Shown here: one piece after another, positions 1,650 to 37,292 of the stretch | Layout of the letters: each line of letters starts with the position of its first letter | Position numbering within the stretch: the stretch's first letter is position 1 | Assembly (NCBI GenBank): GCA_005400705.1 | Contig: GCA_005400705.1_4079.1 | DNA length: 64,000 nucleotides | Source of the DNA: Escherichia coli | Lineage (GTDB): Bacteria; Pseudomonadota; Gammaproteobacteria; Enterobacterales; Enterobacteriaceae | Strand: one strand, 5' to 3' | The notes under the pieces: generated by a model | What the model saw: only the letters and a program-made list of their open reading frames with translations | Told to the model about the DNA's origin: nothing | Databases searched by the model: none | Position numbers and translations under genes: made by a program

Positions 1650-4600
1650 TTAAGAACCGATATTAATATTACTTTTAGCTAGTGAGTTAACAATTTGAAC
1701 ATTTTCAACAGATGCAGTACTCAAAAATATTTGGTCTGAACGTGAAGGGATTTCAAATAGAGAGCCAAATTTTGAATTTGGATTTTGTGCAACTATAACA
1801 ATGGTACTAATATGTCTACCTAACTGTGAGTGTATGTAAGTACACAAATCAGTATAATAGAAACTTTCACCGAAATCCCAGTTATCAACATTGAAGTATT
1901 CATTAGTTAATGCTATAACATTTTGACGAATTTCATCGTCACTCATTGTGCTGTTTGGTAATTTCACTACTTTAAAATCAGCTTTGTAATCTTCAGCAGC
2001 ACTGTTGCCAAATAAAGGTAAGTACTCAGCACTATGCCAAATAATACTATCACTAATGACTATTTTTTGTTCAACATCTTTGAACATATCTTTCAATTCA
2101 ACCGATGTAGGTGGTTTAGGAATACTACCAACAGCATTATTTTTCAACCAAACGTCAACTTCAGTTTTATATGAATTGGTTAATACATACATATCAATTA
2201 AGTTTGTTCTACTAGGATCAATGCGATTGTCGTCAGGTGCATAGTGTTTCCAATGGAAGTCTATACTAGTACGTGCATTAGTTTTAACAGTGTACTGTGA
2301 AGTAACATCTTTGTATCCATAATAATCTAGCTTCTGATTCTCGTCAGCATTAGTTCCCATGTTATTAATTGCACGATAAAAAGCCAATTCAGGACTAACA
2401 GTGCCAGTATCATCGGAATAAGTTAAATTACTAATTAGCTGTCCTAAACGATCATTGTTATTACCAACTGTTTGTTCAATAAAATAATATTTACCATCAT
2501 AGTTAAAACCAACTAAAAATCCAGAACCTTTACTATATAATCCACTCAATGTGGTTGAACGAATTGCGTTATTTCTAACAAATTCAGTTCTTTTATATGC
2601 ATTCGGCTCTGCCAAGGCTTGTTCCATTGTATAAGACCACGATGAATCAAGAAGTGTGAAGGTATCATTTGGTAACGACAGTACTGATATAGTGAAATCA
2701 CTATTTTCCTGAAATACCAAAATACCACCATATTTTAATGCATCGGTTCCAGTCCAAGTAGGAACAATTTCTTTAAATTGGTTTGGTTCCAATGGTATAC
2801 CATTACTATCTACTTTCCTAGATGTAACAATAACACGAGAACCATCTAGATAGCCATTCTCTTGTTGAATTGTGTCATAAATTTGAAAATCTATATTACT
2901 TGTCAATCCTGAATTACTACTACTAGTAGTGTTAGATGATAAAATTTCAATCTTATCACTTTGAACTGTACCAGTACTAATATCAGTAATTTTTTTAGAT
3001 GATACAAAGTAAAATCTTACTTTTTCTCCACCCACAAAAATATATTCAATACCGTTAGCATCAAATTCCCAAGTTTCTGCTGTATATTTTACATTAATTA
3101 TAATTAAAACTTCATTTCCATTATATACAATAGTATCATCATTGGTACTTACTTCAATAGGAACCCATGATGTCGTTTCTTTGTCATGTACAATAACAAA
3201 ATCAGTTTTTTTATCTAGCATAGCAGAAATTGCTTGAACTTCAACCGAGTTAAATCTAGTTCTATATGGTAAAATGTACTCTATGGCTTGCATTCCACTT
3301 GGAACCGATGTACTCAGTACATAAAATCCATTATCCAATACACTAACTACACTAGCCCATATAGTAGTTCCAGAATTAGAAAATTTAATTAGAGTACCAA
3401 CCTGATATGAACCATAAACTGTACCAGATGAACCCAAAATTCTACCATATGTGTTAGTTGTATAATTTGAATTGTATACCGGAGTCCATGCTTGTTGTAT
3501 TTCAATACCAATTGTATTTGATGGAAACGCTTGGTAACGTTGTATTACCGCATTTTCACCAATCAATGGTTGAATATTGTCAATAACAATACTAGCATTT
3601 GTTTTTGTAGTTGGTAGCAATAATGATCTATTAAATTGTGTGTTTTCTTGATATAATGCACCATCATCACTAAAAACATCGGTATTTTGATACTTACCAG
3701 TAGGATCATTAATATCAATAAATCTTGATTGTCCACTATAAATTCTATTAATAGCTTTAGATTTAAGTACAGTATTGCCTAAACTAAGTGGTGCAATATT
3801 ATAATCTTCACCATTGACAAAACGGTTTTGTGTATAGTACATTTGTGGTGCACGTGCTTTAATCTGCTCAATAGTCTCTGCACTTTGTGCACGGTCGGAC
3901 TCATATTGTAATGAAAAACGTATATCCAATGTACTAGATTCATAACTTGACTGTGTTTTTGTACGATATGTATATTTTACGCTTTTATTTTGAATTTCAG
4001 AAGTTTTAATGTTATATGTTTTACCATTACTAACACGATACCATACACGGAACGTCCCACGGGGAACAACACCACTTCTTGAGTCTGGGTACTTAATTGT
4101 TATTTGGTCTTTATCACGAGTAGTAACAGCAAAAATTGTTTTTAATTGACGATTAACAGTGTTATATGCAATACTTTCCATTGATGGAACTTTTGTCCAT
4201 TTGGTACGAACAATACCATCTTCATTTATTTCTTGAACCCATACATCAGTTTCGTTGATATTATCAACGTTAATATCTTGTATACGGTTCTCTTCACGGA
4301 TAGCATATTGATAATCTTGATATGTCAATGTACCTTGTACGAAATATACAAAAAACCCAGTATTTGGTGAGCTAAATCCATTACCATCATTTTGATAAAC
4401 AATATATTTTTGCTCTTGTGGTTCTGGATGTCGTTCTTCAACACCAACAGACGTAATATCAGGATTCACTACTTCAAATGTCATAGATTCACCATTGACA
4501 GTTGCAACAAATGGAATACTGGGTGCTGTCATTGGGATGGTGTTCATTCGATATAGTTGGCGGGAGACACCATTAACATCAATACGCTTGACTGGATTAC

Positions 4601-11401: not shown

Positions 11402-12132
11402 TAAATGAATCCTCCTTTACGTAATAGTTCACCACGTTTGAATGCATTGAGGTTGAACGTTTTAGTCATATAATCCGATGTTGGTTGTTCTTCAAGTTGT
11501 AACATAACTGAGATTTTTTGTGGAACCCAAACTTCATCTTGTGGGTTCATATATCCAGTACTTCTAAGTTGTTCGAAGAATTTTCTACTATCCATGTCGG
11601 ATAAATTAAAAGTACTATCGCTACTATTCAACGGAACTTGAATATAAGAAACATCATTTGGGTAAGTAAAATTATAAGATTTTAAAATAACAGGAATATC
11701 ATTATATGTATAACGACCATATCCACTTAGAAGTAAGATTGGTGGTGGTGCACCTGCAATTGCGAGTTCGGGGTTATTAGCCGAAGCAGCTTGTCTACCA
11801 AAATCCATCAACGAAACAGAACGTATAAAATGAACACATGCCAACGCATACATAGCTTCTGCTGCTGTATTCGCATAAAATTCACCCTGAATCGTGAAAA
11901 CTGTATTAGTAGTGTTCTTATAGTTGTTATAGTTACTGTTAGTATGTATAGGGGACTGTGTTTCATACTGAATTGACCTTTGTTCAGTAATTGTTGGTGT
12001 TACAGTCCAAACCAACCCATTAGTTGGACGCAGAAACGAAAGTAGAGTTGGTTCGGAGCTATCTCCAAAATCACCATATACATAGTTAGCACCTGCGGCT
12101 TTAGGTCGTAATCGAATTCTACGATCAATCAT
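11401..12132 (-). CDS. baseplate module protein (hypothetical)
   Basis: Track ORF 11401-12222; start trimmed to ATG at 12132 preceded by GGAGAA RBS and TATAAATA element; 1-nt overlap with downstream gene. Confidence 0.5.
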   Translation of the reverse strand: MIDRRIRLRPKAAGANYVYGDFGDSSEPTLLSFLRPTNGLVWTVTPTITEQRSIQYETQSPIHTNSNYNNYKNTTNTVFTIQGEFYANTAAEAMYALACVHFIRSVSLMDFGRQAASANNPELAIAGAPPPILLLSGYGRYTYNDIPVILKSYNFTYPNDVSYIQVPLNSSDSTFNLSDMDSRKFFEQLRSTGYMNPQDEVWVPQKISVMLQLEEQPTSDYMTKTFNLNAFKRGELLRKGGFI

Positions 12133-12263: not shown

Positions 12264-13103
12264 ATGACAAATAGACCAAAGCGTAAAAAGTATCTCAATA
12301 ATGCTGATTTACTGCGTGAAATACAAAAAAGTAAAATTTCATATTGCTGGTTATTAGACAAATCATATAGTATGTATGATTATATTGTTTTTCATGAGTC
12401 AGAAATTACTGCTGAGTTACTAGAAAAAGCTAAGGCAGCCCGAATTAAACGACTGAACAATGAAATGCTTGATAGTATTCGTGAAAAGGAAAATATGAGT
12501 GCTAAAAAAGCTAAAGAATATGCAGATGAACACAATTTAGTTATCACTGACGTTCCAATTGATGAAGTTGTTATTCGTGTTATTACAGATGAACATATTC
12601 CACCAGATACTAGAGTTAACTTTGAACCATTCAAGCATTATATTGTAGATAATGAAGGTATTCTCTATGAAGTTTGTCGTTCTCACTGGAAAGGCGACCT
12701 TGAAACTGGTGAATTCAGTACTGTTCATGGTAAAATTACAAATGAACTTGGGAAGATGTTCATTAAACTTGCAGAGGAAATCTCACACAAATCTAATTAC
12801 AGAAACTATACATACTTAGATGAAATGATGGGTGATGCAAGAATACAATTAGTTAAAAACGCACTTCTCTTTAAAGAGAGCATTCTTTATAAAAAAGATA
12901 AACCAGCAGTTCAGCTAAATCCTTTCTCTTACTATACATCATTCGTAAACAATAGTTTTCGTTCTATATTGAATAGTGAGAAAAATGTTCGAAATATACG
13001 TGATGATTTACTTGAAATGCATGGCTTTACGCCATCACATACACGTCAAATTGAAATTGAATTGAACATGATTGAAAGGAAAAATGAAGATGGCTCTGTT
13101 TGA
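12264..13103 (+). CDS. gp55: late-transcription sigma factor (gp55-like), extended C-terminus
   Basis: N-terminal KYLNNADLLREIQKSK resembles gp55 N-terminus as recalled; T4-like synteny 55-47-46; GGAGAG RBS. Confidence 0.6.
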   Translation: MTNRPKRKKYLNNADLLREIQKSKISYCWLLDKSYSMYDYIVFHESEITAELLEKAKAARIKRLNNEMLDSIREKENMSAKKAKEYADEHNLVITDVPIDEVVIRVITDEHIPPDTRVNFEPFKHYIVDNEGILYEVCRSHWKGDLETGEFSTVHGKITNELGKMFIKLAEEISHKSNYRNYTYLDEMMGDARIQLVKNALLFKESILYKKDKPAVQLNPFSYYTSFVNNSFRSILNSEKNVRNIRDDLLEMHGFTPSHTRQIEIELNMIERKNEDGSV

Positions 13104-14121
13104 TAAAGCAATTACATTCACTGATATTCACTTAGGTTTAAAGAATAACAGCAAGCAACACAATGAAGATTGTTTAAACTTCATTAAATTCATGATTGAT
13201 GTAGCTAAAAAAAATAATATCAAAGTTTGTGTTTTTATGGGAGATTATTTTCATAATAGAAGTAATATCAATATCCAAACACTAAACTATGGTTTACAAA
13301 TTCTTCAATTATTAAATGATAATTTTGAAAAAGTATATTTTTTAGTAGGCAACCATGATATGTATCATAAAAACAAACGTGATATAACAAGTATCAATAT
13401 GGCTCAAGTTTATGAAAATATAGAATTCATTAATGAAATTACAACATTTGATGATTGTACTTTCATTCCATTTATGATTGAAGATGAATATAAGTTGTTA
13501 CCTCAACTAAAAAGTAAGTATGTTTTTGGTCACTTAGAGTTACCAGGTTACTTGCTTAACAAGATGGTAGAAATGCCTGATCATGGAAAAGAAACAGAAG
13601 GTTCTTTTGGTGGTTGTGAGTATGTTTTTAGTGGGCATTTTCATAAAAGGCAGTCAAAAACAACTTCAAAAGGAACTCGTGTAGTTTATACTGGTAATTG
13701 TTTTCCACATAATTTTTCCGATACATGGGATGATGCAAGAGGTGTGATGATTCTTGAACATGGTAAAGAACCTATTTTCAAGTCATGGGATAATGCACCA
13801 AAATATAGAACATTCACACTTTCTGAATTGTTGACTGATCCAAGCTATTATCTACAAGATAACACAATATCAAAAGTTCAAGTTGATATATCAATAACAA
13901 CTGATGAGATTAGTTTTATTCGTGATACATTTACTAAACTTTATAACATTAGGGAGTTTAATGTTGTAACTAGCAAGCAAAGTATTTCAGAATTAATCGA
14001 AGATGGTGTTAGTTTTGAAAGTACTGAATCAGTTGATGAGATAGTTTTACAGCAAATTATGGAAATTGATTCACCAATGTTTGATAAAAATCTTCTAATC
14101 CAAATTTACAGATCGTTATAA
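13084..14121 (+). CDS. gp47: recombination endonuclease subunit gp47 (Mre11/SbcD-like phosphoesterase)
   Basis: Motifs FTDIHLG, GDYFH, LVGNHD, GHLE, SGHFH typical of calcineurin-like phosphoesterase; start moved from TTG 13072 to ATG 13084 with AGGA RBS. Confidence 0.8.
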   Translation: MKMALFDKAITFTDIHLGLKNNSKQHNEDCLNFIKFMIDVAKKNNIKVCVFMGDYFHNRSNINIQTLNYGLQILQLLNDNFEKVYFLVGNHDMYHKNKRDITSINMAQVYENIEFINEITTFDDCTFIPFMIEDEYKLLPQLKSKYVFGHLELPGYLLNKMVEMPDHGKETEGSFGGCEYVFSGHFHKRQSKTTSKGTRVVYTGNCFPHNFSDTWDDARGVMILEHGKEPIFKSWDNAPKYRTFTLSELLTDPSYYLQDNTISKVQVDISITTDEISFIRDTFTKLYNIREFNVVTSKQSISELIEDGVSFESTESVDEIVLQQIMEIDSPMFDKNLLIQIYRSL

Positions 14122-14129
14122 GGGACTAT

Positions 14130-16277
14130 ATGCTAAACATTACACGTATATCTATGAGGAACTTCTTTTCATTTGGTAATGCACCACAATCAATTGATTT
14201 GAATGGTTCCGACATTTCATTAGTACTGGGTCAAAATAATGATGCAGTTATTGAAGGTGGTGACAGTACCGGACGTCGAAATGGTGTAGGGAAAAGTGCT
14301 ATTATTCAAGGATTAGTTTTTGGATTATTTGGTAAAAGTATTGGTAATGATATTAAAATTCCGAACCTAGTCAATAAAACTAATGGCAAAAATTGTGAAG
14401 TAGTTGTAGAGTTTGAAAAAGATGGTGTACAATATCTGGTTGAACGTGGGAGAAGTCCCACGTATTTCAATTTTGTTACTTTAGGGAAAGATAATAAAAT
14501 TGAAGATGAATCAAGGGGAGAAAAGAAAGACACACAAGAAGATTTGAATGAAATTCTTGGTATATCTCAATTATTATTTGAACATATTGTAGTACTGAAT
14601 GCTAACGTTGAACCTTTCTTAGCTTTATCCACACAAAAACAACGTGATATGATAGAAGAACTTCTTGGAATAACACAGTTGACGGAAAAAGCTGAAATGC
14701 TAAAGGAGATGTATAAGGATACTAAACGTTTAGCCGAACAAGAAAAGTTCAAAAATGAAACTGTAGCTGCAAGTAATGAACGTATTCAAAAAAGTATTGA
14801 GACACTACAAGAACAGGCAAACCAGTTTGAAATTGATAAAAATAATAGAGTATCTAAGTTAAATGAAGAGTTGAATATATATAAAACTTTAGACTTTAAT
14901 GACCTCTATGAAGCTGCTGATATAAAAGAGAAAGCTCTTATTCATAACGCAAAGCGTGGGGAAATCGAACGCCGTGTACAAGAGTTGGCTTTAAAATTTG
15001 ATGCATATGACCGTGAACTTGAAAGATCTAAAAGAGAATTAAATCTAAGCATTGATAAGCTAAAAACTATTGATATTAGTGCAGAATTGGAAAATCATAA
15101 TGAGTTGGAGATATGGAAACAGTTAGAGGGTATTCTAAAAGAGAATAATAACCAAAAACGTTTCAAAGAACAAAAACTAAACTCACTAAAAATAGCTTTA
15201 AAAGGATATGAATGTTCAATTAATGCTGAAATTGACAAATTATCAACAGTTGAAAACAGCAAATGTCCACTTTGTATGTCTGAATTAGAACATAACGAAC
15301 ATACTTCTTCAATTAAAGACAAAATCCAAAGTACTATTAATGATCTTCAAGCTAAAATTGATAGTTCTTCTTCTGAAATTGAAACATTACTTCAAGAAAT
15401 TGATAGTATTGAGATTTTTGATATGCCACCTAAGCCTGTGACATATTATAATACACTTTCAGAAGCACAAATGCATGAACATAAGCTTCAAGAATTGGTC
15501 AGAAAGAGTGAAGAAGAACAAATAAACATCTATGCAAATGAACTTATGTCATCATATGATGAACTTAACTCATATGAACTAATGGAAGTTCCAGATACAT
15601 TAAACAAATATGAAGTTAAAGAGTTAGAAATGACTGTAAATTCATTATCACAGCAATTAGATCGTGAATTGAAGACTACTAACACATTTATTAGCCAAAT
15701 TAATACCCTGAAGACTGATTCTTTAGTACCAATCGATTATAGCGACTATAATAATCTTGATAAAATGTCAAATCACCAAGATTTCTTGGTTAAATTACTT
15801 TTAAACAAGGATTCTTATGTCCGTAAACGTATTATTGAGCAAAATATCTCATATTTGAATACACGACTTCAGTACTATATCGATATGTGCGGTTCTGAGC
15901 ATAATGTTGTGTTTTTGAATGATTTGAGTGTTGAAATTGAGAAGAGTGGACAGTACTTTGACTATAAACAGCTTAGTAGAGGTGAGCGTACAAGGGTAAA
16001 CATCGCATTATCTTGTGCTTTCCGTGATACATATGAGTCATTATACCAAAGTATTAATATTCTTATCATTGATGAGATGATTGACCAAGGTCTTGACTCA
16101 AGTGGTGTTCTACGTGTGTGGTCTATCTTCCAAGATATGGCTGCTGTACGTGGTAAGAACGTTTATGCTATTTCCCACAGAGAAGAGTTACTATCTAAGA
16201 CTGAAAAAATCCTCAAAGTTGTTAAAGAGGACGGTTTCAGTACTGTTGAATATGCAACCCTTGACGATGTTTTCTAA
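14130..16277 (+). CDS. gp46: recombination endonuclease subunit gp46 (Rad50/SbcC-like ATPase)
   Basis: Walker A RNGVGKSA; long coiled-coil middle with CPLC zinc-hook-like motif; C-terminal signature LSRGERTRVNIALS and Walker B ILIIDE. Confidence 0.8.
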   Translation: MLNITRISMRNFFSFGNAPQSIDLNGSDISLVLGQNNDAVIEGGDSTGRRNGVGKSAIIQGLVFGLFGKSIGNDIKIPNLVNKTNGKNCEVVVEFEKDGVQYLVERGRSPTYFNFVTLGKDNKIEDESRGEKKDTQEDLNEILGISQLLFEHIVVLNANVEPFLALSTQKQRDMIEELLGITQLTEKAEMLKEMYKDTKRLAEQEKFKNETVAASNERIQKSIETLQEQANQFEIDKNNRVSKLNEELNIYKTLDFNDLYEAADIKEKALIHNAKRGEIERRVQELALKFDAYDRELERSKRELNLSIDKLKTIDISAELENHNELEIWKQLEGILKENNNQKRFKEQKLNSLKIALKGYECSINAEIDKLSTVENSKCPLCMSELEHNEHTSSIKDKIQSTINDLQAKIDSSSSEIETLLQEIDSIEIFDMPPKPVTYYNTLSEAQMHEHKLQELVRKSEEEQINIYANELMSSYDELNSYELMEVPDTLNKYEVKELEMTVNSLSQQLDRELKTTNTFISQINTLKTDSLVPIDYSDYNNLDKMSNHQDFLVKLLLNKDSYVRKRIIEQNISYLNTRLQYYIDMCGSEHNVVFLNDLSVEIEKSGQYFDYKQLSRGERTRVNIALSCAFRDTYESLYQSINILIIDEMIDQGLDSSGVLRVWSIFQDMAAVRGKNVYAISHREELLSKTEKILKVVKEDGFSTVEYATLDDVF

Positions 16278-16288
16278 TTAAAGATAAA

Positions 16289-16311
16289 GGGAGCCTTAGC
16301 TCCCTTTTTTT
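16289..16311. terminator. bidirectional rho-independent terminator between gp46 and EndoVII-like gene
   Basis: GGGAGC-ctta-GCTCCC hairpin followed by TTTTTTT; overlaps minus-gene stop. Confidence 0.6.
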
Positions 16312-16787
16312 ATATCAACCATATTTAATTTACCGTCCTTAATCAGCTTTCTAGCTTGCTTTACACGAGCAGTAGTGTTACTACCAGGGACAACTCCTAA
16401 CCCTTCCAGAATCGCGTTTTGCTGTGTTGCTGGAAGCCTTTTAAACTTATTAACATCCACAGTTAGTGCTGTGTGATGTATGACTTGCTCTTCAGGTGGA
16501 ATGTTATTGTTCTTTTCAAGATAATCTGCCAGATTTCTTAGTACTTCATGAAGAGGTTTATCAGTTAAATGGCCCAGACAGCGTTTAAATGAATTTGCGA
16601 CCCTTCCTTCCCATCCATTCACCTCATTTTGAAGAACCTGTCTACAATGTTGATTTCCACCATGATAGTGGTCAAGTACTGGTTTAGTTATTTTTATTCC
16701 TATAATGGGGTCAATACCATTTTGTTTTTTTAGTAGTTCTTTTCTGTAAGCTGCTGCTTCATTGGGATTTTTCAATCTCTTTTTCAT
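16296..16787 (-). CDS. HNH-type nuclease, endonuclease VII-like
   Basis: 163 aa; LDHYHGGNQHCRQVLQNEVNGWEG resembles EndoVII/HNH motif pattern LDHDH...N...EG; antisense to flanking genes. Confidence 0.55.
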   Translation of the reverse strand: MKKRLKNPNEAAAYRKELLKKQNGIDPIIGIKITKPVLDHYHGGNQHCRQVLQNEVNGWEGRVANSFKRCLGHLTDKPLHEVLRNLADYLEKNNNIPPEEQVIHHTALTVDVNKFKRLPATQQNAILEGLGVVPGSNTTARVKQARKLIKDGKLNMVDIKKGS

Positions 16788-16847
16788 AGCGTTTTGTCCT
16801 GTTTCTGTAAATAATGTATATTAAAAAGTTTTGTGAGGTACACAAGA

Positions 16848-17804
16848 ATGGCTAAAATTACACAACAACAATTCATAGATAAATCAATGAATATTCATGG
16901 TAGTATTTACACATACAATAAAACAATATATGTCAATGCACACCATCCAATAACTGTTACGTGTAACATTCACGGTGACTTCACAGTAGTTCCTAATAAA
17001 CACATTTCTGCAAAACAAGGTTGTCCAGTTTGTTCTGATATTGCAAAGAAAGAACGAAAGTCTAAAAAATCTCTGGGGTCATTCTTCACTGAAGCTACCG
17101 AAGTTCATGGTGATAAGTATGATTACTCAAAAGTGTTTTTTAACATTCGTTCAGAAAAGATTACTATTATATGCAAAGAAAAAGGTCATGGTGAATTTAA
17201 TCAAGTAGTTAGTAATCATCTATCTGGACAAGGTTGCCCTGAATGTGCCAAAATTCAAAATGGATTAAAGAAGAGAACTCCAGAAGATGTGTTCTTTGAA
17301 GATTGTAAGTTCATACACATGGATAATTATGATTACTCTAATACAAAATATAATGGCATGTATGAAACCATTACACCATTATGTAAGAGACATGGGGAAT
17401 TCACCGTACTAGCTACTAAGCATTATCATAGAAAACAAGGGTGTCCAGTTTGTTCAGACCAAGAACTAAAATCAAAACCTGTTATTGAAATTCAGAATTT
17501 TTTAAAAACGTGTGATATAATGTTTGAAATGGAAAAGAAATTTGATAGTTGTAAAAACATCAATCATTTACCATTTGATTTTTATATTCCTGAACTTAAT
17601 CTACTAATAGAATATGATGGTATCCAACACTTCAAACCAATAGAATACTTCGGTGGAGAAGAAGGTTTAGCTGAACAACAACGAAATGATGAAATTAAGA
17701 ATAAGTATTGTTATGATAATAATATTACTTTACTTAGAATAAAGTATTCAGATGACCACATTAAAATTATAAAAGACTTCATATCAAAAAATATAAATTA
17801 TTGA
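16848..17804 (+). CDS. homing-endonuclease-like protein: N-terminal Zn-ribbon repeats plus C-terminal Vsr/DUF559-like PD-(D/E)XK nuclease domain
   Basis: Three repeats of HGxF...H...QGCPxC module; C-terminus LPFDFYIPELNLLIEYDGIQH typical of DUF559/Vsr-like fold; track start GTG 16833 trimmed to ATG 16848 with GAGG RBS. Confidence 0.6.
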   Translation: MAKITQQQFIDKSMNIHGSIYTYNKTIYVNAHHPITVTCNIHGDFTVVPNKHISAKQGCPVCSDIAKKERKSKKSLGSFFTEATEVHGDKYDYSKVFFNIRSEKITIICKEKGHGEFNQVVSNHLSGQGCPECAKIQNGLKKRTPEDVFFEDCKFIHMDNYDYSNTKYNGMYETITPLCKRHGEFTVLATKHYHRKQGCPVCSDQELKSKPVIEIQNFLKTCDIMFEMEKKFDSCKNINHLPFDFYIPELNLLIEYDGIQHFKPIEYFGGEEGLAEQQRNDEIKNKYCYDNNITLLRIKYSDDHIKIIKDFISKNINY

Positions 17805-23772: not shown

Positions 23773-23845
23773 ACATAAATAACAGTGTATAAGAATGAGG
23801 GTTTATTTTTACCCTCATTTATAATGCATATTTCAAGGAGATCAA

Positions 23846-24073
23846 ATGTTAAAGGACATCTTTGAATCTAGCAGTGATTCAATGTACGACCCTGAAGATG
23901 ATCAGAACGTATATAAAATTACTGATTCCAGAAAACCGAAACTAACATTACAAGTATTAAACAACTTAAGAAAGTACCGTGAATTTAAAGCACATGAAGA
24001 ACAACGCCGCAAAAATGTGGTTGCAGTTGTTTATGCCGCTGCACCAACAGGTGACGGTTCTGGGTTAATGTAA
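23846..24073 (+). CDS. hypothetical small protein
   Basis: 75-aa ORF with AAGGAG RBS between portal and acidic protein genes. Confidence 0.4.
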   Translation: MLKDIFESSSDSMYDPEDDQNVYKITDSRKPKLTLQVLNNLRKYREFKAHEEQRRKNVVAVVYAAAPTGDGSGLM

Positions 24074-25655: not shown

Positions 25656-25721
25656 CATTTTAAAAATATAAATATCTGTATGTTGAAGTACAGATATTTC
25701 AGTACTTAAAGGAGAGAACGA

Positions 25722-26837
25722 ATGTCTAAATTAGAAAAGCTTCTAAAAGAATCATCTCTTTCTGATGAGGCAAAACAGCTAATTCAGGAAGCATGGAATG
25801 AAGAAAAGAATACACTAGCCGCAGAGATGCGTGAAGAAATGAAAGGCCGTTATCAGCAAGATTTGGCTGAACTAACCGAAGGTTTGAACACTATGGTTAC
25901 TCAAGTCATTGCTGAAGAAATGGGTGCTGTATATGAAGAGAAAAAACGTCTCGTTGAAGATCGTGTAACTCTACGTAAAACACTAAGCAATTTCTCTGCG
26001 TTTTCAAACTCTGTTTTGGCTGAAGAAGTTAAACAAATGCGTAAAGAACGTAAGCATCTTCATGAATGCATGGGTAAATTCGTTAATTTTTCTAACGGTA
26101 TCCTAGCAGAAGAGCTAAAAGAATTCCACACTGAAAAACGTCAACTAGTTGAAACTCGCGTTAAACTACTTGCTGAAGGTTCACGTCAAATTGCTGAAGC
26201 TCGTAATAACTTCATCAAACGTACATCTGAAAGTGCTGCTAAATATATTGCAGAAACCACTCAGAAGAATCTATATGCGTTGAAACAAGATCTAGTGGAA
26301 GCAAAACAAAATATGTTTGGTCGTAAAATCTTTGAAGCATTTGCTCAAGAGTTTAATGTCAAACAATTTAATGAAAACTCATTGCTACGTTCCCTAACTG
26401 AATCAATTAAATCTAAAGAAGATGAAATTGCTCAAGTTAAGCAAGAACTACATGAAACTGCTAATGCGGTTAAAGCTGCTAAAACCAAACTACGTATTAT
26501 GGAAGATGCACAAGCACGTAATGCGATTATGTCTGAACTAGTAAAACCACTAACTGCACAGCAAAAACAAATTATGGAATCTCTTCTAGCTACTTCACCT
26601 ACTGAAAAGCTTAAAGAAGATTTCAGCAAGTACCATAAGTCAGTACTTAACGGTACTAAAGTAAATGAATCTGCTACCACTCGTCAAGCAGTTCAGTCTT
26701 CCGCTAAGAAAACTCTTGCAGAAGGTAAAGTAATCACTGGCAACCGTCAGGCTATTGTTGAAAGCGAAGAAATGACCGCTGACGATATGGCATTCCTAAA
26801 AGAACTCGATGTTCTTTCAGGTATCAATAAAAAATAA
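25722..26837 (+). CDS. gp22: prohead scaffolding protein (gp22-like), coiled-coil rich
   Basis: 371 aa, heptad-rich E/K/L/A composition; TATAAATA at 25667-25674; position protease-scaffold-MCP. Confidence 0.65.
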   Translation: MSKLEKLLKESSLSDEAKQLIQEAWNEEKNTLAAEMREEMKGRYQQDLAELTEGLNTMVTQVIAEEMGAVYEEKKRLVEDRVTLRKTLSNFSAFSNSVLAEEVKQMRKERKHLHECMGKFVNFSNGILAEELKEFHTEKRQLVETRVKLLAEGSRQIAEARNNFIKRTSESAAKYIAETTQKNLYALKQDLVEAKQNMFGRKIFEAFAQEFNVKQFNENSLLRSLTESIKSKEDEIAQVKQELHETANAVKAAKTKLRIMEDAQARNAIMSELVKPLTAQQKQIMESLLATSPTEKLKEDFSKYHKSVLNGTKVNESATTRQAVQSSAKKTLAEGKVITGNRQAIVESEEMTADDMAFLKELDVLSGINKK

Positions 26838-26928: not shown

Positions 26929-28104
26929 ATGTCACAACTACTAAATGAATCCAAATGGGTAGCAGTAAAAGAGAAACTAGTTGAAGGTCTACAGGGTACT
27001 CGTAAGTCTGTAATGGAAACTGTTCTTGATAACCATCGTAAAGTTATGCTAACTGAATCCGCAACTTCTGGTGCAACTACCGCTGGTAACATCGCTACTC
27101 TAAACAAAGTGATTCTACCAATTATGCGTCGTGTAATGCCAACCGTTATTGCTAACGAAATCATCGGTGTTCAACCTATGACTGGTCCAGTTGGTCAGAT
27201 CCACACCCTACGTGTACAATATGCTGATAACGCACCTGGTGTAATCGCTGGTGAAGAAATGCTTTCTCCATACAAAATCGCTAAATCTTACTCTGGTGAT
27301 CTAAATGCGGATAATAGCAACCCACAAGCTGCTCCTACTAGCCAACTAGAAGGTACTATGGGTCGTCGCGTTAACATCCGTATTCTACGTGAAACTGTTG
27401 AAGCGAAATCTCGTCGTCTATCTGCACGTTGGACTGTTGAATCTGCACAAGATGCTCAATCCCAACATGGTGTTGACGTTGAAGCAGAACTAATGGCTGC
27501 AATCGCTCAAGAAGTTACTGTAGAAATCGACCAAGAGCTACTAAGCCGTCTACGTGCACTACCTGGTGCTGCTGCTGTAACTTATGACCAATCTAAAGTT
27601 ACTGGTGTTGCAACCTTCGTTGGTGATGAGCACGCTGCTCTAGCTACTCTAATTAACCGTCAAGCAAACGAAGTTGCTCGTCGTACTAAGCGTGGTGCTG
27701 CAAACTGGGCTGTTGTTTCCCCAACTGCACTAACCATTCTACAATCTGCTACTACTTCTAGCTTTGCACGTACCACTGAAGGTACTTTTGAAGCACCAAC
27801 TAACGTTAAGTTTGTAGGTACTCTAAACAGCACTATGCGTATTTTCGTTGATACCTATGCTAGTGATGCAGAAGATATTCTAATTGGTTATAAAGGTAAT
27901 GCGGAAACTGATGCTGGTGTATTCTATTGCCCATACATCCCACTAATGGCTTCTGGTACTGTAATGGACCCTAACACTGGTGAACTCGTGACCACATTTT
28001 TAACACGCTATGGCTACGTTCAGCTAACCGACAGTACTTCATCTCTTGGTAACGCTGCTGACTACTACAGCAAAATCGCTATCAAAAACGTTACTTTCAT
28101 GTAA
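26929..28104 (+). CDS. gp23: major capsid protein (gp23/gp24 family)
   Basis: 391 aa; IANEIIGVQPMTGPVGQIHTLR, RETVEAKSRRLSA, DAGVFYCPYIPL resemble conserved gp23 segments as recalled; TATAAATA at 26876-26883, AAGGAG RBS. Confidence 0.85.
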   Translation: MSQLLNESKWVAVKEKLVEGLQGTRKSVMETVLDNHRKVMLTESATSGATTAGNIATLNKVILPIMRRVMPTVIANEIIGVQPMTGPVGQIHTLRVQYADNAPGVIAGEEMLSPYKIAKSYSGDLNADNSNPQAAPTSQLEGTMGRRVNIRILRETVEAKSRRLSARWTVESAQDAQSQHGVDVEAELMAAIAQEVTVEIDQELLSRLRALPGAAAVTYDQSKVTGVATFVGDEHAALATLINRQANEVARRTKRGAANWAVVSPTALTILQSATTSSFARTTEGTFEAPTNVKFVGTLNSTMRIFVDTYASDAEDILIGYKGNAETDAGVFYCPYIPLMASGTVMDPNTGELVTTFLTRYGYVQLTDSTSSLGNAADYYSKIAIKNVTFM

Positions 28105-28148
28105 TTATAAACGATTTAAAAGATTTAATCAAGAATATAAAAACAATA

Positions 28149-28176
28149 GGGACTCTTCGGAGTCCCTTTTCTTTTG
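28149..28176 (+). terminator. rho-independent terminator after major capsid gene
   Basis: GGGACTC-ttcg-GAGTCCC followed by TTTTCTTTTG. Confidence 0.7.
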
Positions 28177-28190
28177 TGTTAAAAAAATGC

Positions 28191-28219
28191 TTGACAGAAT
28201 ATTTTTAATTATATATAAT
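28191..28219 (+). promoter_or_regulatory. consensus sigma70-type promoter (TTGACA-N17-TATAAT)
   Basis: TTGACA 28191-28196, 17-nt spacer, TATAAT 28214-28219; lies inside the track ORF 28046-29341, so the real start must be downstream. Confidence 0.65.
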
Positions 28220-28252
28220 TATCAAATCGAAACCAAGTTGAGTAAATTGAAA

Positions 28253-29341
28253 ATGTTAATTGAAAATTTCAAAAAGAAAATGAATGAAAAATATGGAATG
28301 TATGGTGAGTTTGATTTTAATTCGATGATTTTTAAATCTAGCAAAACTACCTTGAAATGTAACAAATGTGGTATTGAAAATACAAAGTCTGCAATTCGTC
28401 ATATCTCATGTACTTGCTCTAACTGTTATAGTAACATGTCCCAGCGTTCCAATAATGATGATTTCATTTTAAAAGTTGAAAAGAAATTCGGGACTGAAAA
28501 ATTTAAATTTGATAAATTGGTTTATGTTAATGCAAAAACTCCAGTTACAATATTCTGCACTAAACATAATGGTTATTTTCACATAACACCAAATAAGTTA
28601 TTAACTGGTGCTGGATGTAACGTTTGTAATATTAATGTAGTGCATACGAATAATGAATTTATAAAAATTGTTAAACGTAATTATGGTGATAAATTTAGTT
28701 TCCAAAAAACCAACTATATTAACAGAACAACAAAAGTCACAGTGCATTGCAATGAAGGAAATCATGATTGGGAAGTTGATCCAAAAACATTGATACTTGG
28801 GAAGTCAGGATGTGGTATATGTTCAGGTAAAGGTGGGAGAACAACCGAGCAATTTATTGCAGAAGCTGTAAAAGTTCATAACAATAATTATGATTACTCA
28901 TCTGTTATGTATGAGCATAGTGAAAAAATGGTCGAGATAAAATGCAACAATTGTAAAAATATTTTTCATCAGCAACCTAAAGCACATTTGACAGGTCGTG
29001 GTTGTCCAAAATGCGGTAAGTATGGTTATCAGACTTCCAAGCCTGGATATTTTTATGTACAGAAACTAACTAATAAAGATAAAACCGTTTACAAATATGG
29101 AATCACTGGTGATATGAAACGTAGAGTGAACGAACAGAGTCGTGATTCTGAATTCGTCCATGAAGTACTAGTAGAACGTTTCTTCGAAGATGGTAATAAA
29201 CCCCTCTTACTGGAAAAGTTTATCAAGCAGTACATTGAAAGTGGAGTAGTAAGTACTGAAGAGTTGCCGTCAGGATTTACTGAAACGTTTGATGAAAAGT
29301 ATCTAAAATCTGTACTGGAAATTGTAAATACCTTTAAGTAA
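28253..29341 (+). CDS. homing-endonuclease-like protein: Zn-ribbon repeats plus C-terminal GIY-YIG/T5orf172-like domain
   Basis: Repeats of Cx2C...H...GCxxC module similar to 16848-17804 gene; C-terminal GYFYVQK...VYKYGITGDMKRRVNEQ; start chosen at first ATG after promoter (28253; 28280 also possible). Confidence 0.6.
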   Translation: MLIENFKKKMNEKYGMYGEFDFNSMIFKSSKTTLKCNKCGIENTKSAIRHISCTCSNCYSNMSQRSNNDDFILKVEKKFGTEKFKFDKLVYVNAKTPVTIFCTKHNGYFHITPNKLLTGAGCNVCNINVVHTNNEFIKIVKRNYGDKFSFQKTNYINRTTKVTVHCNEGNHDWEVDPKTLILGKSGCGICSGKGGRTTEQFIAEAVKVHNNNYDYSSVMYEHSEKMVEIKCNNCKNIFHQQPKAHLTGRGCPKCGKYGYQTSKPGYFYVQKLTNKDKTVYKYGITGDMKRRVNEQSRDSEFVHEVLVERFFEDGNKPLLLEKFIKQYIESGVVSTEELPSGFTETFDEKYLKSVLEIVNTFK

Positions 29342-29364
29342 ACAATCTAAAGGAGTTGACACGG

Positions 29365-29715
29365 ATGTTAACTGTATACAAATTTAAAAGAGAAGAGTAC
29401 TTAAAGAGCCAGTACTCAAATATAGAAATAAATGTTCCTTATGGTACGTTAGTTGGATACGATGAAGCCACTGAAACATTGTATTATAATGATGATAGAT
29501 TAGATTATAGTTTAGATTCTTTCATAGAAGATATACTTAATACACATACTGAAGATATGTTGTATGAAGAATACATCGATCATTATAGAGAACGTATGTC
29601 GCTGCTGCATTCTGATGCTCCTGTGCTAAACATTGCACAAGAACCCTCGGAATTTCAGCCACATAATCCTTTTCAACGTTTAATTGATATTGGTTTAAAA
29701 TTCACTATTAATTGA
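29365..29715 (+). CDS. hypothetical protein
   Basis: ATG 29365 with AGGAG 9 nt upstream (track start TTG 29356). Confidence 0.45.
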   Translation: MLTVYKFKREEYLKSQYSNIEINVPYGTLVGYDEATETLYYNDDRLDYSLDSFIEDILNTHTEDMLYEEYIDHYRERMSLLHSDAPVLNIAQEPSEFQPHNPFQRLIDIGLKFTIN

Positions 29716-29754
29716 TAGATAAATATCTCCATATTAATGATGGAGATTGAATCT

Positions 29755-30063
29755 ATGTCACAGATATGTTATGTTATAATAAACTCTGCATGGCCTGACT
29801 ATGTTAAGATTGGTTTCACTTCTAAATCTGAAATGACAGAGCGTTTGAGAACGTATCAGACAGCTACCCCGTTTCGTGATTTTGAAGTTTATCATGAAGT
29901 TCACTTTGAAGACGCACGTTTAGCTGAAAAAGAGATACATAAAAGGCTTAAACAAATGAATGCAACTAGACAACCAAACACGGAGTGGTTTAAAATGTCT
30001 AAAAAGATAGCAGCAAACATCATTGATTCTGTGTGGGATGATATGGATAACGACTTGCTATAG
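29755..30063 (+). CDS. small GIY-YIG/T5orf172-like domain protein
   Basis: N-terminal CYVIINSAWPDYVKIGFTS...RL pattern; start trimmed to ATG 29755 with GGAG RBS; ATCTCCAT/ATGGAGAT hairpin spans 29729-29751. Confidence 0.5.
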   Translation: MSQICYVIINSAWPDYVKIGFTSKSEMTERLRTYQTATPFRDFEVYHEVHFEDARLAEKEIHKRLKQMNATRQPNTEWFKMSKKIAANIIDSVWDDMDNDLL

Positions 30064-30103
30064 GAATAAATATAGTATATATTAATCATAAAGGGATTTA
30101 TAC

Positions 30104-31729
30104 ATGAGCATAAGTTTTAATAACCCATTGGATACAATGACCAGTACTGGTGCTAATGGATCTTTAGAACTAATAGTGCTTGGTGGTACACCAACTAACC
30201 CAAGACCTATTCGTTTTAATTCGTCATCAGTTATTATACCAGTACAAACTTTACCTACTGGTGAACAAGGTGCAATGGTTTTTGATCGAAGCGAATTAGT
30301 TTTGAAGTATCATAACGGTACAAGTTGGGTTGCAGTATATGATACTGATACTATTTTGGAACCAATTAGAATTTCATTAGATGAAGTAAACCGAAAATTA
30401 AATTTAAAAGTAGAAAGTGTAACATACAGTAGTAGTACTGTTCCTAGTGCAAGTATTAGTGGAACAACCTTAAACATTGTATTCCCTACTGCTTCTAGTG
30501 GTGGTTCTGGTCCAACTGGTCTTTACACTTCACTTAAACCTGGTGCTATTACACAATATTCATTGACTTCTGGACAAACTGTTGCTAGTATTCGTGAACA
30601 GATGTCTGGAGTAACTAATGGTCAAAGTGGTCGTAATGGTTCACAAGGTTCTCCGTGGAAAACTTCTGATGGTTGGTGTTTTGCTGATGGTATGTGGTGG
30701 CAATGGGAGGGGGAAAATGGTACAATCACTAAACAAGTTCCAAATCTTAACCAAGAAGCATACTTGAAAGGCATTACCACATCAGGCGTAACTAAAACTG
30801 ATAGTGTGATTGCAAGTAGTGCATCAATTAGTGGTACTGCGATATCAATTGCTCAACTTCCACCGCACTCATTTAGTTTCAGTGGAACTACTGGTGCTGC
30901 TGGTCGTCATGGTCATAGCCAAGCACTAAGAGGTATGGACAGAAGTGGTCTTAATGCGTTAACATCCAGTAACGACAACGGAATCCCAACTGTAATTAAT
31001 AACATTAACGAAGCACCTGATCACGTGCATAGTTTCAGTGGTTCAACCAATACCGTTGGTAGTGGACAAGCACATACCCACGGAATTAGCAATATTGACG
31101 TACCACACTTTAATGTGGCATACTTATATAACATTGCTGAGTCTAACGTTGCATTGAGTGAAAAAGTTGCAAACACCCGTTATGTACTTAAAACTGGTGA
31201 TGTAATGACTGGTTCATTGACTATTGCTAACAGTGCTTCTATACGTTCAAATGACACTTCATTAGTACTTTACTTCCGTAACGCTACTAATGGTGAACGT
31301 GCAGCAATTTATCATAATTCATCTAACAATACATTACGTTTGAGAAGTAATGGTGGTTCGGAAGTTACAATTAACTCTTCTGGTGTACTTTATGCCCCAT
31401 CAGTTACTGGTGCATCATTGTCTATTTCTGGAAACACTGCAACTGTTGCCAGTAAAAACATCGTAAGATCTATTAACGGTAACAACGCTGATGTAAACGG
31501 TAACGTAACTTTAACACTAGGTGCTGTACAAGATGTTCGTTTAAGTAAAAGAACAACTACGCGACATGTTCCTGATTCTTCTTGGAACTATGTACCTGAA
31601 GGTGCTACACTTGATGGGTTGTTTATTTCAGTAAATGGTAGTTCAGGTACACACGTTGAAGGTTTGAGTTGGAGATATACACAAAAACTTGTAAATGGTG
31701 TATGGACTAACGTAGTAGTGGAGTCTTAA
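30104..31729 (+). CDS. tail fibre protein with His-rich HxH metal-binding-like C-terminal region
   Basis: 541 aa; Gly/Ser/Thr-rich; HGHSQ, DHVHSF, AHTHGIS motifs as in T4 fibre tips (gp12/gp37 type). Confidence 0.65.
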   Translation: MSISFNNPLDTMTSTGANGSLELIVLGGTPTNPRPIRFNSSSVIIPVQTLPTGEQGAMVFDRSELVLKYHNGTSWVAVYDTDTILEPIRISLDEVNRKLNLKVESVTYSSSTVPSASISGTTLNIVFPTASSGGSGPTGLYTSLKPGAITQYSLTSGQTVASIREQMSGVTNGQSGRNGSQGSPWKTSDGWCFADGMWWQWEGENGTITKQVPNLNQEAYLKGITTSGVTKTDSVIASSASISGTAISIAQLPPHSFSFSGTTGAAGRHGHSQALRGMDRSGLNALTSSNDNGIPTVINNINEAPDHVHSFSGSTNTVGSGQAHTHGISNIDVPHFNVAYLYNIAESNVALSEKVANTRYVLKTGDVMTGSLTIANSASIRSNDTSLVLYFRNATNGERAAIYHNSSNNTLRLRSNGGSEVTINSSGVLYAPSVTGASLSISGNTATVASKNIVRSINGNNADVNGNVTLTLGAVQDVRLSKRTTTRHVPDSSWNYVPEGATLDGLFISVNGSSGTHVEGLSWRYTQKLVNGVWTNVVVES

Positions 31730-31730
31730 T

Positions 31731-32249
31731 ATGAAAACGTATACAAATTTCAAAAAATATATACCAGTAGAAAAAAAACATGGAGATAATGTTCTTTATC
31801 TATTGTCAGATGAGGGTATTGACTGGTATGATTGTCAAACCGAATTCAGACAAGATACTTTAAAAGTTCAGTACTCTGACGATGGTTATATTGCACAAGC
31901 ATCATATGATGTAACATTGTTAGTACCGTATGGATACAGTGTTTCTGAGTTGGAGCATGATGGAGATGAAGATGAAGTAGTTGGTAAAATCTATGATGGA
32001 AGTAAAATTTCTGATTATGTTGAATCTACTGATGAAAAGATCAAACGTCTATCATCTGAGCACCAAGAATTAAGAACTGTAGCAATTAATGAGTTGAATA
32101 ACATTAAGATGGCGATAGATCTTGAGGTAGCAACTGATTATGAAATAGAACTGTTTCCTAAGTTGAAAGCATATGTTCTTGAGCTATCATCTCTAACAAC
32201 ATCTGAATTTAGTAAGAAGAAGTTTTCGTTCCCTGTTAAACCTGTTTAA
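31731..32249 (+). CDS. putative tail fibre assembly protein/chaperone
   Basis: 172-aa ORF coupled directly downstream of fibre gene; assignment positional. Confidence 0.45.
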   Translation: MKTYTNFKKYIPVEKKHGDNVLYLLSDEGIDWYDCQTEFRQDTLKVQYSDDGYIAQASYDVTLLVPYGYSVSELEHDGDEDEVVGKIYDGSKISDYVESTDEKIKRLSSEHQELRTVAINELNNIKMAIDLEVATDYEIELFPKLKAYVLELSSLTTSEFSKKKFSFPVKPV

Positions 32250-32294
32250 AAGTTTTTTGGAACAAAATCGTAAGTAGTGATACAATGTAGTCAT

Positions 32295-32325
32295 CTCACC
32301 GATTGTGGTGAGGTGACATTTTTTT
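32295..32325 (+). terminator. putative terminator hairpin
   Basis: CTCACC-gattgt-GGTGAG followed by gtgacaTTTTTTT. Confidence 0.45.
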
Positions 32326-37022: not shown

Positions 37023-37030
37023 ATAAATAA
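37023..37030 (+). promoter_or_regulatory. late-promoter-like TATAAATA element followed by hairpin
   Basis: TATAAATA then GGGGAACA-cta-TGTTCCCC hairpin 37032-37050. Confidence 0.35.
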
Positions 37031-37085
37031 CGGGGAACACTATGTTCCCCAAATTAGTTTGATTTAAAAAGTAAAGGAATACAAA

Positions 37086-37292
37086 ATGCCATTATATACA
37101 TATCGTTGTGAAAAAGAAGAATGCAAACATAGCATGGAAAAAATTGTTAAAATTGCAAATCGTGATGAACCTCATGATTGTCCTAAATGTAATGGTGAAA
37201 AAACTATGAAGTTGGAAGTGTTCACTCCAGGTGATAAGGGTGCTAATCTTTATTTCCGTGGAAAATGGTTTGCAAATACTGGAGGTTACTGA
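37086..37292 (+). CDS. FmdB-family zinc-ribbon protein
   Basis: MPLYTYRCEKEECKH...DCPKCNG matches MPIYEY-C-x2-C...C-P-x-C-G zinc-ribbon pattern. Confidence 0.55.
   Translation: MPLYTYRCEKEECKHSMEKIVKIANRDEPHDCPKCNGEKTMKLEVFTPGDKGANLYFRGKWFANTGGY

Follow-up and report, generated by a model that had tools for sequence, protein, structure and literature searches.

Introduction

Proteins of the T5orf172 family, within the GIY-YIG superfamily, are typically phage homing endonucleases whose genes cluster beside capsid genes, and their usual architecture joins zinc-finger repeats to a C-terminal T5orf172 domain (PMC10448857). Targeting is provided by N-terminal CapR, DUF723 or DUF4379-type zinc-finger repeats or by RepA_N, and the genes are sporadic in their presence. 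A second described system is the hairpin switch of phage T4, in which a late-promoter box abuts the 5′ arm of a hairpin and the Shine-Dalgarno sequence (SD) lies in the 3′ arm; this arrangement is known from T4 e, soc, 49, I-TevI, I-TevII, I-TevIII and segB and from mobE of phage Aeh1 (PMC2988022, PMC3014915). Here, we describe a gene that resembles both systems, located at 29755–30063 of a 64,000-nt stretch of DNA (contig GCA_005400705.1_4079.1 of the NCBI GenBank assembly GCA_005400705.1, filed under Escherichia coli; hereafter, the window). It encodes a 102-aa stand-alone T5orf172 protein, referred to below as the small nuclease.

The window is of the Asteriusvirus jumbo phage type, since its 28000–32300 region matched 57 phage records at 82–92% identity (megablast), with the E. 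coli jumbo phages 121Q, PBECO4, BF17 and vB_Ec-M-J of the genus Asteriusvirus as best matches. The catalytic domain of the small nuclease is that of the homing endonucleases of ICP1 and T5 type and of Odn/Gp88 of ICP1; it keeps the Arg and Glu that matter in Odn, and its gene likewise lies next to a capsid gene. In contrast to those proteins, the small nuclease is a bare domain, and it is fixed and syntenic across genera. Its leader resembles the T4 switch in that a box abuts the 5′ arm, the SD is held in the 3′ arm and the gene follows earlier transcription units. It differs in its host (a distant RaK2-like jumbo phage), in its box (ATAAATA instead of TATAAATA) and in the kind of evidence, which here is comparative and draws on 21 leaders.

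The best explanation of the data, to which we assign a probability of roughly 60%, is that the gene encodes a complete T5orf172 domain, is constrained and vertically inherited, is translated only late through the hairpin switch and yields an active endonuclease. Public records already carry an annotation for the gene, and the regulatory device follows a design familiar from T4; what is added here is that the gene is fixed and constrained in this phage group, and that its hairpin, judged from covariation, probably acts as a late switch. The elements on which the argument is built are as follows.

28191–28219, plus strand: perfect sigma-70 promoter, TTGACA-17-TATAAT (12/12 consensus positions)
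29365–29715, plus strand: gene for a 116-aa acidic protein, orthologue of 121Q gp605, RaK2 ORF096, GAP32_252 and CBB gp258
29719–29725, plus strand: ATAAATA box, core of a T4-type late promoter, whose final A doubles as the first hairpin base
29725–29747, plus strand: hairpin ATCTCCAT / ATTAATG / ATGGAGAT, with the SD (GGAG, 29742–29745) in its 3′ arm
29755–30063, plus strand: small nuclease gene, orthologue of 121Q gp606, GAP32_253 and CBB gp259
30066–30072, plus strand: next ATAAATA box, 3 nt past the nuclease stop and 31 nt before the tail-fibre start

The small nuclease is a bare T5orf172 domain with an intact residue set

The frame is open from 29737 to 30063, and initiation at the ATG at 29755 gives the 102-aa product. 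This ATG is almost certainly the true start, since the GGAG lies 9 nt upstream of it, since the orthologues begin with MSQICY, MQICY or MSKQICY, and since other genera lack the in-frame ATGs at 29737 and 29740. The Pfam profile T5orf172 (PF10544) covers residues 4–91 of the 102 (E 3.1e-13; 50.5 bits vs. a cut-off of 20 bits) with profile positions 2–98 of 101, i.e., a full-length match above the curated threshold that places the protein in the GIY-YIG superfamily and leaves no room for a second domain. Moreover, the protein is matched by MUG113 (E 8e-13) and, end to end, by phrog_15085 (E 2e-58), and a profile search of 1.84 billion representatives returned 2007 cluster-representative relatives at E up to 1e-3, with stand-alone T5orf172 proteins of about 100 aa being common. 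In public records, 121Q gp606 and its PBECO4 counterpart carry the RefSeq label "GIY-YIG nuclease family protein", while the records of GAP32_253 and CBB gp259 carry a PF10544 T5orf172 note. The NCBIfam search yielded zero families for either the 102-aa or the 116-aa protein, and profile searches of PDB sequences gave no meaningful match for either.

The predicted fold, beta-beta-alpha-beta-alpha-(beta)-alpha with a sheet of three strands between helices, is like that of solved GIY-YIG domains, and its best structural neighbours are SLX1-type enzymes. Identity to SLX1/URI-type nucleases and to the bacterial UPF0213 (YhbQ-like) proteins is 14–20%, and SLX1 needs its own RING domain and its partner SLX4. 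The T5orf172 domain is also shared with the PADLOC candidate defence proteins PDC-S57 and PD-Lambda-1 (E 5.5e-17 and 5.9e-5, respectively). Those proteins are bacterial and have 212–496 aa with extra domains, whereas the small nuclease belongs to the late cluster of a lytic phage; membership in either group was rejected, since the PADLOC matches are at domain level only.

In an alignment of 30 orthologues from isolates and metagenomes (63–93% identity, few gaps), the residues Q3, I4, C5, Y6, N10, V17, K18, G20, T22, K24, R30, Y34, T36, P39, F40, R41, D42, E58, E60, E77, W78, K80, N88 and D91 are invariant, and the family motif (Y6, K18-I19-G20-x-T22, R30, Y34 and E77-W78) is retained throughout. 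Among 49 more distant T5orf172 relatives taken from the profile search (28–57% identity), G20, R30, P39, E77 and W78 are still invariant, and Y6, N10, K18, Y34, Q35, R41 and E58 are kept at ≥90%. Judged from the order of motifs and from secondary structure, Y6 is probably the tyrosine of the 'GIY' motif and Y/W16-V-K-I-G20 the 'YIG' strand, R30 and Y34 would be the Arg and Tyr/His of helix 1, E77 the metal-binding Glu and N88 the Asn of helix 3. ICP1 Odn/Gp88, a T5orf172 protein, cuts DNA in vitro and is inactivated by mutation of the Glu equivalent to E77 (PMC8263062). Given this precedent and the intact residue set, the domain looks catalytically competent, and the small nuclease may well be an active metal-dependent endonuclease that uses Tyr6, Arg30, Tyr34, Glu77 and Asn88. 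The protein ends in a conserved acidic tail, DD-x-(D/E)-N-x-L-(L/I), which could be a docking peptide and is offered as a lead only.

These results agree with a preliminary description of the stretch, made from its letters alone, which had read the gene as a minimal GIY-YIG/T5orf172-like core of about 100 aa without DNA-binding repeats. The profile search that it proposed did find the T5orf172 similarity, the fold has the GIY-YIG order with SLX1-type enzymes as the nearest structures, and the catalytic Arg, Glu and Tyr residues whose conservation it proposed to check (assigned here as Arg30, Glu77, Tyr6 and Tyr34) are kept, as are all those invariant across the family.

A proposed late-promoter box abuts an SD-sequestering hairpin

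Upstream of structural genes of phages CBB and GAP32, MEME found the motif ATAAATA, which was proposed to be a late promoter by analogy with T4 TATAAATA, and CBB encodes a gp55-like sigma factor (PMC5259590). The window holds 22 ATAAATA sites vs. 37.7 expected, i.e., fewer than by chance, and approximately 18 of these 22 lie 15–65 nt upstream of an SD and start codon (contexts read by eye), with the genes behind them including those for the scaffold, capsid and tail-fibre proteins and several further upstream.

In the small nuclease leader, the hairpin arms (29725–29732 and 29740–29747) form 8 bp around a 7-nt loop. A hairpin had been noted earlier at 29729–29751 as spanning the upstream in-frame ATGs; it is present and does span them, but its coordinates are 29725–29747, and it moreover holds the real SD and abuts the late-promoter box. 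Partition-function folding gave the SD an unpaired probability of 0.02 in a read-through RNA vs. 0.41 in a late RNA modelled as starting 6 nt past the ATAAATA box, which is the largest fold-change in SD accessibility among the 18 box-preceded genes of the window.

The arrangement recurs in 21 of 22 orthologous leaders, in which, 0–2 nt past an invariant TAAATA, a 5′ arm begins whose pairing partner, the 3′ arm, contains the SD. These 21 leaders have at least 10 distinct stems, including the following.

TCTCCAT / ATGGAGA
TCTTCAT / ATGGAGA (with a G-U pair)
ACCCC / GGGGT
CTTCC / GGAGG
ACTTCCAT / ATGGAGGT
TCCCA.GAGTAC / GTACT.TGGGA
AACTCATC / GATGAGTT
CCTTCACT / AGTGGAGG
CTTCATCT / AGATGAGG
TCCCTGTA / TACAGGGA

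Pairing is thus conserved over sequence, and the hairpin is taken as real because relatives with changed stem sequences conserve it. Since a MAFFT alignment of the leaders disagreed with the structure, an arm-swap energy test was used, in which cognate arms gave a mean of –9.97 kcal/mol vs. –5.74 kcal/mol for non-cognate arms, with 0 of 20,000 permutations reaching the observed value (p about 5e-5). The combination of box and hairpin is also present in two non-syntenic metagenomic contigs (L013 and L014).

With the geometry assumed from T4, the SD is paired in the long RNA and the box is placed so as to exclude the 5′ arm from the late RNA. The proposed mechanism would then run as follows. Read-through RNA from upstream would carry both arms, so that the stem would form and the SD would be occluded, whereas ATAAATA, as a –10-like element, would direct transcription from about 29731–29733, i.e., from the 3′ end of the 5′ arm or the loop. 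The resulting late RNA would lack the 5′ arm and would form no stem, and the nuclease would be translated. Both folding and covariation give good support to the view that the small nuclease is translated only late. A likely source of early read-through RNA over the large endonuclease gene, the 116-aa gene and the nuclease leader is the sigma-70 promoter at 28191, and the terminator scan reported no terminator-like site on the plus strand from there to 29755. In pEa_SNUABM_12, which does not have the large endonuclease gene, a TGAAAC...TATAAT promoter, of a type reported for CBB (PMC5259590), lies ahead of the gp605 orthologue.

The hairpin might alternatively serve as a constitutive translational throttle or as a stabiliser of the mRNA 5′ end, with late transcription starting at or before 29725, or else signal processing or termination for the gene upstream. 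Such roles would fit the unmapped start sites, the hairpins without SD that follow the boxes at 25668, 23775 and 37023, and the terminator scan, in which the stem appears solely as a terminator-like site of the minus strand. We nevertheless consider them unlikely: for any sigma-dependent RNA polymerase, a –10-like box has to precede +1 by approximately 6–7 bp, and the first base of the 5′ arm already belongs to the box; the plus strand lacks a T run after the stem, and there is no convergent minus-strand gene; and the 3′ arm always holds the SD, across the at least 10 stem variants, with a predicted accessibility change that no other box-preceded gene of the window reaches.

Further ATAAATA boxes with hairpins directly 3′ of them were seen at 25668–25722, 23775–23846, 37023–37086 and, on the minus strand, 12174–12132. 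Predicted SD accessibility rises from 0.21 to 0.61 for the scaffold gene and from 0.00 to 0.23 for the minus-strand virion protein gene at 12132, and the late-switch logic may apply to more genes in the window. Of these hairpins, those at 23775 and 37023 more closely resemble promoter-overlapping terminators.

The small nuclease gene is constrained and largely vertically inherited

The small nuclease has a dN/dS of 0.03–0.04 when compared with 121Q and vB_Ec-M-J, and of 0.06–0.11 when compared with EJP2 and L012, the most divergent orthologue. Between genera, synonymous sites are saturated, and 63–78% of the nuclease residues are kept. The gene is therefore under strong purifying selection and not degenerate. 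Identity is 68% to the Eneladusvirus and Mimasvirus orthologues and 68–75% between genera overall; in the same comparisons, the scaffold protein is 70–72%, the capsid protein 90% and the gp605 protein 32% (about 30%) identical. The difference between the nuclease (68–75%) and the 116-aa protein (about 30%) had raised recent horizontal transfer as a candidate, which the scaffold and capsid calibrators rejected: by their measure, the nuclease diverges as a conserved gene of vertical descent would, and the 116-aa protein is simply fast-evolving. Moreover, nuclease dN correlates with capsid dN (Spearman rho 0.77, p 0.015).

An orthologue of the small nuclease was found in 63 phage records. The gene occurs in RaK2-like jumbo phages of at least three genera (Asteriusvirus, Eneladusvirus and Mimasvirus) and in some unclassified relatives. 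In all 16 inspected isolate genomes that carry the gene (121Q, PBECO4, vB_Ec-M-J, EJP2, JNE01, A4, PHA46, Munch, Hallingskeid, Kaldavass, pEa_SNUABM_12, fHe-Yen9-04, GAP32, CBB, XbC2 and XaC1), it lies between the gp605-like and tail-fibre genes, with one extra ORF on each side of it in XaC1. Three metagenomic contigs among those long enough to judge (L012, L022 and L024) have it in the same position, adjoining a fibre-sized gene. RaK2, the one Alcyoneusvirus genome examined, is the only inspected genome without the gene; its position there (L005, 4404–5138) holds the unrelated, N/I/K-rich 244-aa ORF097, which has no Pfam match, i.e., a replacement and not an empty site. Taken together, the small nuclease gene is fixed and largely vertically inherited rather than sporadic and selfish.

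The neighbouring endonuclease occupies a hot spot

The genes that surround the locus are arranged as follows.

25722–26837, plus strand: scaffold protein gene
26929–28104, plus strand: gp23-type major capsid protein gene
28148–28167, plus strand: intrinsic terminator 3′ of the major capsid gene (8-bp GC-rich stem, then a T run), kept in PBECO4
28253–29341, plus strand: large endonuclease gene (start at ATG 28253 inferred)
30104–31729, plus strand: tail-fibre gene
31731–32249, plus strand: tail-fibre assembly protein gene
Between the tail-fibre assembly and DNA polymerase genes, plus strand: small putative regulator gene
From 32733, plus strand: DNA polymerase gene

The large endonuclease is matched by phrog_681 ('endonuclease', E 9e-73) and has DUF4379, DUF723 and CapR-type zinc-finger repeats (the CapR match being weak) and a sub-threshold T5orf172 match at its C-terminus. 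Its listed ORF starts at a TTG at 28046 and overlaps the capsid gene, and the ATG at 28253 was inferred as the start instead. The gene is of the free-standing homing-endonuclease type and is variably present: it occurs in the window, 121Q, vB_Ec-M-J, RaK2, EJP2 and Munch, and as two tandem copies in L024, and is absent from PBECO4, pEa_SNUABM_12, Hallingskeid, XbC2 and CBB, while a 77-aa ORF at this site in GAP32 may be a remnant. PBECO4 is 98–100% identical to the window over gp605–gp606, yet has no large nuclease.

The gap between the capsid and gp605 genes (28105–29364, with the same site in L001–L011, L016 and L024) is a homing-endonuclease hot spot, which holds zinc-finger/T5orf172-type endonuclease genes of 304–408 aa in some relatives and is empty in others; in L024, the two tandem endonuclease genes are found without a gp605-like gene. 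In the window, the strong capsid terminator is followed at once by the perfect sigma-70 promoter ahead of the homing endonuclease gene (28148–28219). Since PBECO4 keeps the terminator without the promoter, the endonuclease cassette apparently introduced an early promoter of its own to the late-gene cluster.

The preliminary description had correctly noted a full-length nuclease gene alongside the small one and had suggested that the latter might be a degenerate or regulatory copy of it. The two genes are indeed adjacent, and both encode a nuclease domain of the T5orf172 family. However, BLASTP found no significant similarity between the small and the large nuclease (E = 1), by which the small nuclease was rejected as a paralogue of the large one's C-terminal domain; the small gene is present in PBECO4, pEa_SNUABM_12, Hallingskeid, XbC2 and CBB, where the large one is absent; and strong purifying selection and the retained invariant residues do not fit a degenerate gene. 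This origin of the small gene is, in our judgement, highly improbable, and so is the two-part enzyme considered below.

A different possibility is that the small gene is itself selfish, i.e., a minimal free-standing homing endonuclease that would cut genomes without the gene (e.g., of the RaK2 type) and spread by gene conversion, its late promoter and hairpin being the usual T4-type control of homing endonucleases. Its family is typical of phage homing endonucleases clustered beside capsid genes (PMC10448857), hairpin and late-promoter control is shared by I-TevI, I-TevII, I-TevIII, segB and mobE, the nuclease locus is a hot spot, the L013 and L014 orthologues lie elsewhere but retain box and hairpin, as would be expected of a moved cassette, and an unrelated ORF takes the site in RaK2. 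On the other hand, the small nuclease is not joined to a DNA-binding module, whereas 87% of T5orf172 homing endonucleases have zinc-finger repeats (PMC10448857). Its distribution, rather than being sporadic or incongruent with phylogeny, is clade-wise (63 records and every non-Alcyoneusvirus relative inspected), while the true homing endonuclease next door differs even between the near-identical 121Q and PBECO4. Finally, its divergence tracks that of the capsid at very low dN/dS, whereas a fixed homing endonuclease would be expected to decay. Selfish homing therefore strikes us as a rather unlikely account of the small gene.

The 116-aa protein is not an obligate partner

The 116-aa ORF preceding the small nuclease gene is real and conserved across RaK2-like phages (phrog_15724, E 2e-56; tblastn matches in 71 phage records), although the Pfam and NCBIfam searches gave no family for it. 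Its product has a pI of 4.4 (family median 4.8) and a net charge of –13, no Cys and no zinc-finger motif, and a weak SH3-like fold; its dN is approximately threefold that of the nuclease. The preliminary description had noted this ORF and called it an unknown partner, a designation that does not hold, since each gene occurs without the other: the 116-aa gene without the nuclease gene in RaK2-type phages, and the nuclease gene without an adjoining 116-aa gene in L013, L014 and L024. This co-occurrence pattern, together with the acidity, the lack of Cys and zinc fingers and the faster evolution of the 116-aa protein, argues against an obligate partner and makes a two-part enzyme of both proteins very improbable. 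The CBB virion proteome lists gp256, gp257 and gp260, but neither gp258 (the 116-aa orthologue) nor gp259 (the nuclease orthologue).

In PHA46 (L007, 2217–2472), the gp605-like gene is annotated as two ORFs of 96 and 168 bp, whereas the near-identical Munch has an intact 134-aa gp605-like gene; the split reflects either a frameshift, a sequencing error or gene loss in this isolate. Since the Eneladusvirus 116-aa orthologue has its own sigma-70-like TGAAAC/TATAAT promoter, the 116-aa gene would be an early or middle gene embedded among late structural genes. A small and acidic early protein of this kind brings DNA mimics or anti-defence factors to mind, which is pure speculation.

Possible roles of the small nuclease

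As no sequence-reading module is present, the small nuclease probably recognises DNA structure, works without specificity or is directed by a partner, and its acidic tail (DD-x-(D/E)-N-x-L-L) may serve such partner targeting. The switch would be conserved because early production of the nuclease is presumably harmful. The nuclease could take part in late DNA processing or recombination, could destroy competitor or host DNA, or could retain a residual homing function. Iyer et al. proposed that Uri/T5orf172 proteins of T4-like jumbo phages may act like Holliday-junction resolvases (PMC7824862). A tentative suggestion, possible but not the most probable, is that a bare T5orf172 domain was domesticated into a late phage enzyme aimed by a partner that recognises the acidic C-terminal tail, and that it would nick or process replicated DNA before packaging, or would destroy competitor or host DNA.

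Domestication could also have gone in another direction, towards a non-cleaving DNA-binding or regulatory factor that tunes, for instance, the capsid or tail-fibre genes. A precedent is PLE CapR, a repressor of capsid genes with a T5orf172 endonuclease as its ancestor (bioRxiv 10.1101/2020.11.28.402263, PMC10448857), T5orf172 was originally viewed as a DNA-binding domain, the small nuclease gene sits between capsid and tail-fibre genes, and the near-neutral pI of 5.9 is unusual for a DNA enzyme. However, Arg30, Glu77, Tyr6, Tyr34 and Asn88 are invariant over saturated synonymous divergence, while pure binders usually lose such residues; CapR binds DNA through a zinc-finger domain (PMC10448857) that is absent from the small nuclease; and a conserved block on early translation fits a harmful enzyme better than a binder. 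We consider a non-cleaving factor improbable, and somewhat more so than selfish homing.

Several observations weigh against our preferred explanation, i.e., a constrained, late-translated and active endonuclease. The hairpin energy is unremarkable by itself (z = –0.94), and the +1 position is carried over from T4 and from the geometry of RNA polymerase. L012 has no box and no hairpin, and its nuclease gene has an 8-nt overlap with the upstream ORF and presumably relies on translational coupling, so that the switch is not indispensable. The active-site residues were assigned from the order of motifs and from predicted secondary structure rather than by superposing structures residue by residue. 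The phage also has endonuclease VII and SbcCD-like nucleases, so a debranching role is not required of the small nuclease. In the metagenomic contigs L013 and L014, the orthologous gene (3001–3303; 67–70% identical) lies near an S1-domain gene, which reveals at least occasional, if rare, movement and leaves some room for mobility. Finally, a literature search found no experiment on the small nuclease or its orthologues and no Asteriusvirus transcriptome or proteome; a search for experiments on stand-alone phage GIY-YIG proteins likewise found nothing relevant.

As for the two displaced copies, L013 further contains a DUF1353 gene and stretches that match tRNA regions of other phages. A CTAAATA box and the SD-sequestering hairpin are retained in both contigs, which suggests that promoter, hairpin and ORF travelled together on at least one occasion.

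Other features of the window

Further upstream, the window contains the following genes.

12264–13103: gp55-like late sigma factor (phrog_12791, E 3e-154)
13072–16277: SbcCD-like genes
16296–16787, minus strand: endonuclease VII gene
16833–17804: zinc-finger/HNH-type homing endonuclease gene (phrog_559, E 1e-66)

The last two genes lie back to back, and the late sigma factor and SbcCD-like genes are just upstream.

Downstream of the small nuclease gene, the region 30540–32250 is a mosaic module that comprises the C-terminal three quarters of the tail fibre and the assembly-chaperone gene. It is 93–100% identical to vB_Ec-M-J over most of its length (81–88% around 31140–31290) and only 51–94% identical to 121Q and PBECO4, while both flanks are 96–100% identical to 121Q/PBECO4. 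This is a swap of a host-range cassette with one breakpoint within the tail-fibre gene. Motivated by the idea that nuclease genes occupy boundaries of genetic exchange, we examined whether such a boundary coincides with the small nuclease gene; this was rejected, since the breakpoints lie at approximately 30540 (in the tail-fibre gene) and 32250.

Conclusions

The idea of a decaying copy gives way to a fixed and constrained stand-alone nuclease domain across a group of 350-kb phages, preceded by a covariation-supported example, in distant jumbo phages, of the T4-type late promoter placed within a hairpin over the ribosome-binding site. The practical value is modest, as this is a fairly ordinary example of known phage biology. 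Nevertheless, the switch offers a means of annotating late promoters and true start codons in RaK2-like phages, and the locus marks a homing-endonuclease insertion hot spot that is relevant to engineering or comparing therapeutic E. coli jumbo phages. If the small nuclease proves to be a housekeeping enzyme, it would document the domestication of a homing-endonuclease module, i.e., one turned into a housekeeping gene while retaining its ancestral hairpin and late-promoter control.

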